In this document: in pieces, positions 596-59,329 of the stretch
How positions within the stretch are numbered: the first letter of the stretch is position 1
How the letters are laid out: every line of letters begins with the position of its first letter
Notes under the pieces: generated by a model
What the model saw: the letters and a program-made list of their open reading frames with translations, nothing else
Database searches by the model: none
What the model was told of the DNA's origin: nothing
Position numbers and translations under genes: made by a program
Origin: Octopus sinensis
Taxonomy: Eukaryota
Length of the DNA: 64,000 nt
Direction of reading: 5' to 3'
Assembly (NCBI RefSeq): GCF_006345805.1
Contig: NC_043001.1
Location: forward strand, 14,942,001 to 15,006,000

Positions 596-715
596 CTATC
601 CATCTCATACACCCATGCACTGTCTCTTTCTGTTTCTTCTCCCCCTTCTATTCTCTCTTTTTCTCCCTCAATTCCAATCTGTCTGTCTGTCTATCTATCT
701 CTATATATCTGTCTG

Positions 716-758
<43 letters not shown>

Positions 759-775
759 GTCTGTCTATCTCTCTT

Positions 776-830
<55 letters not shown>

Positions 831-847
831 GTCTGTCTATCTCTCTT

Positions 848-891
<44 letters not shown>

Positions 892-992
892 CTATCTATC
901 TGTCTGTCTATCTCTCTTTTTCCATCTATCTATCTATCTATCTATCTGTCTATCTATCTATCTATCTATCTATCTGTCTGTCTATCTCTCTT

Positions 993-4995: not shown

Positions 4996-5280
4996 CCATT
5001 TTATTTTATCTTTCATTTCTTTCATCAAAAACACTCGATTGTTCTAAGCTGCCATCAACAGGGACAGCATCCTCAGCATGTCTGAGATTAGTGACCATTC
5101 TTCCATCTGTATTTGTATCTTCAAAACCTACTGCTTTAATCATTACACTTTCTGCAAAGATATTAAACAGAGACGGAGAAAACATGCATCCTTGTTGTGC
5201 TCCATGCTCAATTTCAATTCACTCAGTGAGTTCCATATTAATTTTGATAGTTGTTGTTTACACAGAACTAAGTAATTTTA

Positions 5281-5526
5281 ATACAATTCTATATTTAAGA
5301 GATAAGGAATTATTTACATTGTTTACATTATTTACAATTGACGGATATTTGTCCTCATCTTGTTTGTTGTTAACACAATGTTTCAACTGACTCACCCTCC
5401 AGCCTTCATTAAGTGTCTTTGGGAAATTTTGAACCTGAGTTCTCATTCCTGAGGTATTTTTTTATGTTACTATTATCATTATTATTATTGTTGTTGTTGT
5501 TGTTATCATCATCATCATCATCATCA

Positions 5527-5601
<75 letters not shown>

Positions 5602-5719
5602 TCATAGCCTGGAATCAAACTCAGAATCTTGGCGTTAAGAGTGCAAGCTACTAACCCCAAGATTCTGAGTTCGATTCCAAGCAGTGACCTGAATAATAAT
5701 AATAATGATAATAATAATA

Positions 5720-5755
<36 letters not shown>

Positions 5756-5900
5756 TAACATCGAAAAATACCTTAGGAATGAGAACCCAGGTGTGAAATT
5801 TCCCCAAGATACCTGATATAGGCTGGAGGGTATATCAACCAAAACATTGTGTTAACAACAAACAAGATGAGGACAAATATCCGTCAAATGTAAATAATGT
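5281..5900. mobile_element. Fold-back tRNA-headed element with degenerate Penelope-type hammerhead motifs (copy 1)
   Basis: Inverted arms ~5323-5637 and ~5652-5900 with (ATT)n/(AAT)n; B-box AGTTCGATTCC; homologous to 58877-59299. Confidence 0.8.
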
Positions 5901-6394
5901 GATTTTTAAACAGGTTATAACATGTTTAGGAAATCCCAATGGTGTCACCATTGACATCACAATTTGTCATCAGAAACGGCTTGCATCAATTGCTAATCAA
6001 TAAATCAATAAATAGTTCTAAATTACGCTCTCAAGTTTTTTGCTTATTACTATTTTTAACCAGGCTATGCTACAAAGGGTAGGGCTATTAGATATAATGC
6101 CAACTGGACACAAACTGCTCTTGGTCAACCCCAGCTGGGTTGCCTGAGTAAGGTTGTCTGATGTTTCAAGACCCAAACATGCAATGACACCGTGATGCAT
6201 CACTGACAGTGTGTCCAGATGCATCACAGGATAATATACAGAAAAAACTTTCGGAAGAGTTAAGTATCCTTCATTCCTTTTGTAGTTAAAGTCCAACTTG
6301 TCACTCTTCGATTTCTGTTTCATATTTCACTTTAACTCTATCATTTCATCTAGTTTCAGCTCATGAGCTGTGGCCGTGCTGGGGCACTGCCATT

Positions 6395-6401: not shown

Positions 6402-6409
6402 GTCCCTGT

Positions 6410-6482
6410 AGGTTCCAGTGAGTTTCGAACTCACGACCTTCTGTGTGTTAAGCAGATGTGATAACCACTACGCCATGGAACC
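6410..6482 (-). tRNA. tRNA-Val(AAC) gene or pseudogene
   Basis: GGTTCCA TG GCG TAGTGGTTAT CAC A TCTGC TTAACAC ACAGA AGGTC GTGAG TTCGAAA CTCAC TGGAACC T; perfect acceptor and T stems, C.A mismatches in D and anticodon stems. Confidence 0.85.
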
Positions 6483-6532
6483 TTGACAGTAATAATCGAA
6501 AGTAAAATTTTTACAAACGTAATTTAATCAGT

Positions 6533-53030: not shown

Positions 53031-53123
53031 TATTTCATTCTACACGTGTTTCGAAAGGCACAATTTACCAAATTCCGATTGAATAATGAGACCATATTGT
53101 GCCTTTCTCTTCAGGAAGAAATA
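53031..53123 (-). ncRNA. Type I hammerhead ribozyme
   Basis: TATTTCTTC-CTGAAGA-GAAAGGCACAAT-(31 nt)-ATTGTGCCTTTC-GAAAC-ACGT-GTA-GAATGAAATA; intact core, 12-bp stem II, palindromic stem III, GUA triplet. Confidence 0.85.
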
Positions 53124-54138
53124 GGAAATCCGTTGGAAAAAACAAAAACAGAACAGAGGCGGAGCAAAACAAATCGAACTAGGCTCCTAAGAGCCCATGG
53201 CCAAACTGTTTATCAGTGTATGTTGAAAACTGGTGGTGGGGGCGTTGAAGATTTTAACGGGTCAGGCAACGGTCATTCCGGTGGGTGAGGGTACGGGGTG
53301 TGTAGATGTTCTTTGTGACCGAGAGTAAAGTTCTGACTATTTAAAGAATATTAGATGTATTATATGGGGCGAGAGAAATCTACTAAGAGACATGTGTGTG
53401 TTTACTGTTCTATATATGTGTGCGGGTGCGAGTTGATAAGCAGCGCTACATTCTGGTCAGTGCTGAGAAATCCGTCAAGGGGTAGAAAACATTTTGTGTG
53501 TGCGTTTGATCGCGCGGCTGTCAGTTGGTAAACAGCTCTACCCAATGGTCAATGCTGTAGAATCCGTTGGGCGGCAGAAAAAAAATATTTTATGTGTGCG
53601 TGTGTTCGTCACAGACGAACACATGCACACGCACAGCATTGACCATTGGGTAGAGCTGTTTACCAACTGACAGCCGCGCGATCAAACGCACACACGTACA
53701 CATAAAATGTTTTCTACCCCTTGACAGATTTCTCAGCACTGACCAGAATGTAGCGCTGCTTATCAACTCGCGCCCGCACACATATATAGAACAGTAAACA
53801 CACACATGTCTCTTAGTAGATTTCTCTCGCCCCATATAATACATCTAATATTCTTTAAATAGTCAGAACTTTACTCTCGGTCACAAAGAACATCTACACA
53901 CCCCGTACCCTCACCCACCGGAATGACCGTTGCCTGACCCGTTAAAATCTTCAACGCCCCCACCACCAGTTTTCAACATACACTGATAAACAGTTTGGCC
54001 ATGGGCTCTTAGGAGCCTAGTTCGATTTGTTTTGCTCCGCCTCTGTTCTGTTTTTGTTTTTTCCAACGGATTTCCTATTTCTTCCTGAAGAGAAAGGCAC
54101 AATATGGTCTCATTATTCAATCGGAATTTGGTAAATTG
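53061..54138. mobile_element. ~500-bp-arm inverted repeat, probable Penelope-like element inverted pseudo-LTR pair
   Basis: 53061-53558 is the near-exact reverse complement of 53633-54138; HHR at the outer end. Confidence 0.8.
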
Positions 54139-58657: not shown

Positions 58658-58876
58658 TACTACTATACTACTTATTATTATAGTTCTCTTGAATTTTTTT
58701 AGTGATTCTGTCCATTGGTTTGCCTGCAATCGTTGCTCTTGAGAGCTGTGTGTGCAACTGTTTATTGTTTTGCTTAGGAGCCCTCCGGGTGGAGGGTAAA
58801 ATTAGGCACAGGGGCCCTGGTCTGAGAGGGTTAATGACTAATGTTATTAACATACTTTGCGAATAAGCATTTTAAT

Positions 58877-59299
58877 AATACAAGTTCTATATTTAAGAGA
58901 TGAGGAATTATTTACACTATTTACATTTGACAGATATTTGTCCTCATCTTGTTTGTTGACACGTTTCGGCTGATATACCCTCCAGCCTTCATCAGGTGTC
59001 TTGGGGAAATTTCAAAACTGGGTTCTCAGTTCTAAGGTATTTTTGATGTTATTATTATTATTCACAGGCATATGGCATAGAGGTTAAGAGCGTGGGCTAT
59101 TAACTCCAAGATTCCAAGTTCGATTCCAGGCAGTGACCTGAATAATAATAATAATATCGAAAAATACCTTAGAAATGAGAACCCAGGTTTGAAATTTCCC
59201 CAAGACACCTGATGAAGGCTGGAGGGTATATCAGCCGAAACATTGTGTTAACAACAAACAAGATGAGGACAAATATCCGTCAAATGTAAATAATGTAAA
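58877..59299. mobile_element. Fold-back tRNA-headed element with Penelope-type hammerhead motifs (copy 2)
   Basis: A-box 59073-59083, B-box 59117-59127, CTGATGA..GAAAC at 59209-59241 (+) and 58963-58995 (-); 9-bp TSD CATTTTAAT. Confidence 0.85.
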
Positions 59300-59329
59300 C
59301 ATTTTAATCATCATCATCGTCTCAACAGT

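Follow-up and report, generated by a model that had tools for sequence, protein, structure and literature searches.

A fold-back insertion at positions 5282-5900 of a 64,000-nt stretch of Octopus sinensis DNA (contig NC_043001.1, positions 14,942,001 to 15,006,000; hereafter the window) is the stub of a Penelope-type retroelement, an assignment made by layout and domains. In our reading, to which we give a probability of roughly 0.6, it consists of head-to-head, 5′-truncated Penelope-type repeats inserted into an older reverse transcriptase (RT) fossil, with arms that were likely reverse-transcribed separately and then joined. The layout itself is an already known Penelope insertion shape: published descriptions of Penelope anatomy include an inverted 5′-truncated pLTR and a tail of 30-40 nt on one end (PMC3846280, PMC8557442, PMC8969392). 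Less ordinary are the tRNA-derived start of the repeat and the one-tail-per-pair statistics.

Anatomy of the insertion and its surroundings

The insertion consists of a minus-strand arm (5282-5637) and an inverted plus-strand arm (5634-5900). Both contain part of a tRNA-like head, followed by an (AAT)n tract and by a body of 140 nt. The arms can be aligned across all three parts within the window. This alignment bears out the claim of an earlier, sequence-only reading (the first-pass annotation) that the palindrome turns inside the tRNA-like head at GTTA 5634-5637. GTTA, which reads TAAC along the minus arm, is the overlap of the two arms; the family-majority overlap is 5 nt (GGTTA/TAACC), with a G>C change at 5633 in this copy. 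The features are as follows.

5008-5281, minus strand: fossil coding stretch of an older non-LTR RT, downstream part, 69-70% identical to the uninterrupted L067/L068
5272-5281: left target-site duplication (TSD), with the intact core TTTTAA at 5276-5281
5282-5325, minus strand: tail (one-sided 3′ extension); in L062 and L054 the same sequence continues into the ORF 5′ part
5326-5469, minus strand: tailed-arm body
~5373-5417, minus strand: putative minimal hammerhead motif of the tailed arm, mutated (core TTAATGA vs CTGATGA)
5470-5594, minus strand: tailed-arm (AAT/GAT/AAC)n tract
5595-5637, minus strand: short-arm part of the tRNA-derived head, 3′ half, starting at TAAC (about tRNA position 36)
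5634-5637: head-to-head junction, GTTA microhomology, recurrent hotspot
5634-5694, plus strand: long-arm tRNA-derived head, from about tRNA position 18
5695-5759, plus strand: tail-less-arm (AAT)n tract
5760-5900, plus strand: tail-less-arm body; its 3′ boundary is the family's first fixed 3′ end
5779, plus strand: candidate ORF start ATG, in the tail-less-arm body
~5808-5853, plus strand: putative hammerhead motif of the tail-less arm, mutated
5899-5909: right TSD, with the intact core TTTTAA at 5904-5909
5910-6042, minus strand: upstream part of the split fossil RT stretch, 66% identical to L067/L068
58868-59308: another inverted insertion of this family; 9-bp TSD CATTTTAAT at 58868-58876 and 59300-59308

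The 3′ end of the minus arm is 44 nt longer than that of the plus arm. This tail (5282-5325) contains one additional AATGTAAA-type unit and sits on the shorter arm, as measured at the junction. The extension had been described as lying only on the left (minus) arm, which is true of this copy but not as a rule, the family carrying its tail on either arm. In the long-arm head, a B-box-like GAGTTCGATTCC is found at 5667-5678, and truncation removed most of the A box. The two arms differ at 15 of 129 non-CpG sites and have no derived variant in common.

L067 and L068, two homologues without the insertion (66-70% identity), carry the left and right flanks as one continuous stretch, so an older RT-coding fossil was split by the insertion. 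The first-pass annotation had seen this split, placing it at a TTTTAA site in an RTE RT domain. Judged against these homologues, TTTTAA is probably only the surviving core of a decayed duplication of ~10-12 bp, GTAATTTTAA / GTGATTTTTAA; both homologues carry TAAAATTACTT at the duplication site. The L067 frame matches the RVT_1 profile weakly (E 0.002, under the curated cut-off), and the flanks are RTE-like by their motifs. ARAGORN also predicts a tRNA-Val(AAC) at 6408-6483 (minus strand), 500 nt from the fold-back insertion.

The second copy, at 58868-59308, has its tail on the minus arm, a full head on the plus arm and an intact hammerhead core. The 5282-5900 and 58877-59299 copies are 94% identical over 156 nt, and the turn of the latter falls between the (ATT)n tract and the head 5′ end. 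They are thus one family with different turns, as first proposed; that the family is the pLTR of a Penelope-type element had not been recognized.

Elsewhere in the window (53061-54138) lies an unrelated 448-nt inverted pair, 99% complementary, with an extension on the left arm only and a hammerhead-like core (CTGAAGAG ... GAAAC) that encloses a long stem II. This pair looks like a far younger Penelope-type insertion from another family.

The Penelope-type repeat and its tRNA-derived head

Members of the family are copies of the pLTR (3′ terminal repeat) of a Penelope-type retroelement that has a C-terminal endonuclease (EN). A coding stretch upstream of the head was found in one of the first 30 relatives and was then used as a query. 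The head directly follows the ORF stop codon in 30/30 ORF-anchored loci, one of which is the query locus itself and one of which retains only 27 nt of the head. The single ORF upstream of the repeat matches the RVT_1 profile (E 1.2e-9 in L064 and 1.3e-7 in L062). Its C-terminal part contains the motif CVYSIPCSCG-x-YKGET, and the nearest Atlas clusters to this part score 0.96-0.97, with GIY-YIG in 15-27% of their members. By sequence, the domain C-terminal to the RT appears to be a GIY-YIG-like endonuclease; a Pfam scan of the ORF did not call GIY-YIG, and a PDB search with it returned generic RT matches only. Among Penelope-like clades, the C-terminal EN excludes Naiad/Chlamys only. The 5282-5900 insertion is a Penelope-type stub because an RT/GIY-YIG-like ORF lies upstream of the head and the published inverted-pLTR layout is present.

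The near full-length locus L062 opens with a tail-less repeat in inverted orientation, which is followed by a short direct repeat, RT, endonuclease and a 3′ repeat with tail. In its direct repeat the tail continues into the 5′ part of the ORF, and the locus has a 12-bp TSD. The pLTR overlaps the ORF start, with an open frame from the repeat through the tail. A 38-nt intron spanning the tail was considered and rejected as unnecessary, since the open frame starts at an upstream ATG.

Inspection of the majority sequence of the body revealed a putative minimal hammerhead motif: CUGAUGA, an unpaired base, stem II, GAAA, a palindromic AC/GU without loop 3, and a short stem I. Its core is mutated in both arms of 5282-5900. 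Rfam searches with both window copies and L119 returned no hammerhead and no tRNA, only sub-gathering, hairpin-driven matches of miRNA type.

In many respects the family resembles EN+ Penelope-like elements (PLEs) as described in PMC3846280 and PMC8557442: the arms are head-to-head, the tail is on one end, the TSD is ~8-14 bp, repeat and tail overlap the ORF start, and RT is followed by a C-terminal GIY-YIG-like domain. Unlike the rotifer pLTR, which is described with a putative TATA/Inr promoter, the octopus repeat has an A/B-box segment of tRNA origin at its start, together with an (AAT)n tract. It also resembles Poseidon of Anolis carolinensis (PAc; PMC11167929) in its AT-rich targets, its pair of 3′ ends delimiting the tail, and its pLTR hammerhead located at the ORF start. 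This likeness is one of layout, and the portion of the PAc description used here mentions no tRNA-like segment and leaves inverted pairs unaddressed. The hammerhead motif shares the CUGAUGA core, GAAA, missing loop 3 and short stem I of the metazoan PLE minimal hammerheads reported in PMC4209133, but differs from them in its putative cleavage triplet (GUU here) and in that both copies of the motif in 5282-5900 are core-mutated. Penelope families with recent activity are listed in a survey of octopus repeats (PMC13282606).

The 74-nt head carries A- and B-box-like motifs at tRNA spacing. Compared with 27 distinct genomic tRNA genes of only 9 isotype/anticodon classes, it aligned best to tRNA-Arg(TCT) (z 7.5, 50 matches). 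The head is tRNA-derived as judged from this similarity, tRNA-Arg(TCT) being nearest only among the 9 classes compared; ARAGORN, run on the head with a relaxed threshold, found no proper cloverleaf. The repeat has probably captured the head as an internal promoter of Pol III type. Three raw RNA runs from one study have equal strand coverage and no start cluster, and they contain many strand-switch joints, so they are uninformative about a promoter.

Most head-bearing arms (~80%) start at the head 5′ end. Genome-wide 24-mer counts, taken at up to 1 mismatch and with two degenerate positions in the head pattern, are 18,947 for the body, 7,330 for the 5′ part of the head, 1,508 for the sequence 35 nt upstream and 1,428 for ~170 nt further. 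Among 30 head-anchored loci, 23 start within 8 nt of tRNA +1 and 7 run on into the ORF (L105 and L126 identified by eye, the other 5 by script). The 5′-end cluster may be due in part to a TGCCC/GGGCA palindrome located where the head starts.

Other sequences are found next to these parts in individual loci. For example, a ~500-nt insert is common to L011 (875-1450), L021 (~920-1480) and L028 (2436-2912); in L011 and L021 it separates head from body within the (AAT)n tract, and it is either a subfamily or a microsatellite-targeting element. In L029, the apparent 3′ end of another non-LTR ORF (706-915, minus strand) lies within the (AAT)n tract of the tailed arm; its family is assigned tentatively, by motif.

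Junctions and tails across loci

We examined 90 loci: 30 found by body similarity, 29 by the ORF end, 30 by the junction pattern, and the 5282-5900 copy. These are the best matches of three queries and no random sample. A head-to-head pair is present in 49 of them. The junctions fall in the body, the microsatellite, the head and also far inside the ORF, and the TSD length varies among loci.

The junction of 5282-5900 had been singled out as different. This holds in comparison with 58877-59299, but the junction is not peculiar to 5282-5900: a 39-nt pattern spanning it has 136 matches (up to 2 mismatches) compared to none when reversed as a control. Among the first 30 loci, the GGTTA/TAACC hotspot accounts for 2 of 18 pairs. 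Of 23 hotspot pairs, 11 have a tailed short arm, 8 have a tailed long arm and 4 could not be scored; here and in the variant comparison below, the hotspot subset was defined without intact heads.

Derived non-CpG variants common to both arms of a locus number 25 compared to 7.6 in shuffled pairings (37 usable pairs). For the hotspot only, 16 are shared compared to 3.9 (21 pairs; maximum 13 in 5,000 shuffles). By this test, arms resemble their own partner more than other loci, and conversion between arms at a later date could account for part of the shared variants.

These results support the proposal of the first-pass annotation that the palindrome arises anew at each insertion, given the many junction positions, both tail polarities at one junction and the variants shared within loci. 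Asymmetric ends, variable junctions and variable TSD length likewise agree with its view that this is not a fixed MITE terminal inverted repeat structure, and the contrary case of one junction common to all copies, with deletions explaining the differences, is contradicted by the many junctions tabulated. Nor is the hotspot junction a propagated master, because both tail polarities are found there and arms share variants with their own partner.

Outside the hotspot, junction overlaps were counted by hand in 32 of 70 rows and are approximate. An overlap of at least 2 nt was seen at ~13 of the 32 junctions, 0-1 nt at 6 and filler at 13; thus 19/32 have 0-1 nt overlap or filler. Filler can be only apparent, from later mutation, the copies being ~5% diverged. 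The 38 omitted rows comprise 32 at the hotspot and 6 that are tail-side, repeated or mis-mapped; the omitted non-hotspot rows are L016, the second rows of L037, L043 and L084, the first of L047, L120, and L027, where one duplicate hotspot overlap was counted once in the row exclusion.

A second hotspot is found at the TGCCC/GGGCA palindrome of the head start in L102, L112, L118, L119 and L125, near-perfect palindromes in which both arms extend to the tRNA 5′ end.

Arm 3′ ends are bimodal, with two fixed sites ~30 nt apart. The 49 pairs divide into 42 with one tailed arm, 3 with no tail, none with both arms tailed and 4 unclear; exactly one arm is therefore tailed in 42/45 scorable pairs (p = 3.6e-10 against independence). 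Tails were scored by motif because a few arms had local alignments that extended into AT-rich flanks. In 27 of 41 pairs (11/19 at the hotspot and 16/22 elsewhere, 2 of the latter being complex) the tailed arm is the one shorter at the junction, and in the other 14 it is the longer one. A more complicated arrangement is seen in L050 (978-1332), where short arms alternate in orientation and two tailed arms are joined tail to tail.

Possible routes to an inverted pair

Paired priming at two RT start sites is the best fit that we infer from these counts. The endonuclease would cut both target strands with a stagger of ~8-14 bp, and each target 3′-OH would prime RT on the element RNA, one arm at the inner start site and the other at the outer site, giving the latter its tail. 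Both cDNAs would extend toward the RNA 5′ end and would then be joined by microhomology or end joining. The element RNA would mostly start at the tRNA-derived head, the probable captured internal Pol III-type promoter, so that most copies would be short run-off products.

LINE-1 twin priming also produces an inverted 5′ segment, joined by microhomology and made at insertion. The octopus pairs are like LINE-1 twin priming and R2 snap-back (PMC11371274) in all three respects, but differ from both as described in that one and the same 3′ region is copied into both arms, whose ends fall at two fixed sites. For Penelope elements, the formation of inverted repeats has been called an open question (PMC8557442, PMC11167929). 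Purified Poseidon protein, a predicted dimer, cuts and extends both target strands in vitro, and the two sites from which it starts RT delimit the tail (PMC11167929).

A broader proposal may possibly hold, although we doubt it in its full extent: a dimeric RT would prime both nicks at two start sites (twin priming), a captured tRNA-derived Pol III promoter would give the element its own SINE-like RNA, and together these would explain the inverted pLTR and the one-sided tail across Penelope elements. Our literature search found no tRNA segment in a pLTR, no Penelope-driven SINE and no Penelope twin priming; Repbase, Dfam and supplements may bear on this.

The strongest competitor to paired priming, unlikely but to be taken seriously, is self-priming (snap-back on cDNA or antisense RNA) into a hairpin with two full arms, one tail of which the endonuclease trims at integration. 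Such later trimming of one arm would give identical tail statistics, since it predicts a single tail per pair, both polarities and shared variants. Palindromic junctions and self-priming have been proposed for rotifer Penelopes (PMC3846280) and the tail has been attributed to EN-mediated resolution (PMC8557442); the cDNA end at the hotspot can form a 5-bp stem with a 14-nt loop (-2.7 kcal/mol). What speaks against it is the lack of usable microhomology at 19/32 non-hotspot junctions in the hand count, together with the coincidence of tail ends with RT start sites in vitro (PMC11167929).

Without trimming, a first strand that folds at GGTTA/TAACC and copies itself becomes improbable. The longer arm would be the first strand and would serve as template for the second, which rules out a tail on the shorter arm alone; yet this is seen in 5282-5900 and in 27/41 pairs, where the copied arm would carry a tail absent from its template. 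The tail-less arm, moreover, ends at a fixed site and not randomly. The fold-back priming suggested in the first-pass annotation is not supported in this simple form, even though the hotspot hairpin exists, snap-back 5′ junctions are known with R2 proteins (PMC11371274) and the 14/41 pairs with a tailed longer arm would fit.

Could the short copies instead be an independent tRNA-headed SINE that uses Penelope enzymes? The tRNA similarity and A-/B-box geometry of the head would suit a SINE, as would a copy count that falls five-fold at the head 5′ end and the absence of sense-strand T runs longer than 3 nt from head to tail. tRNA-derived SINE families of octopus were reportedly described by Ohshima and Okada in 1994, and the present family is like such SINEs in its tRNA-derived head and in that the majority of copies start at tRNA +1. 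Unlike them, it has its head inside the repeat of an autonomous, ORF-bearing element and a Penelope-type 3′ end. Distances are equal, at 10.2% and 10.6% within 36 ORF-linked and 23 head-start arms, respectively, and 10.4% between them, with no diagnostic site. The short arms are therefore no separate lineage, and we rejected head-start copies as a non-autonomous lineage distinct from their partner. An independent SINE is thus very improbable, and the head is better described as a tRNA-derived segment within the autonomous element's own repeat.

Finally, a palindromic master or a MITE whose fixed inverted repeats were later diversified by deletions is hardly credible: one junction does recur at at least 136 sites, but this recurrent junction has both tail polarities, arms are closer to their own partner than to other loci, and there are many other junctions, some deep in the ORF, with variable TSD length.

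With thousands of short copies and two fixed ends, the octopus family provides counts that bear on how Penelope inverted repeats form. One tail per pair, on either arm, counts against simple snap-back, and the existing in vitro system offers a test of this. If true, a tRNA-derived promoter in a pLTR would be one route by which a SINE-like unit arises within its autonomous partner, and such repeats would easily be mis-filed as SINEs or MITEs in cephalopod annotations.
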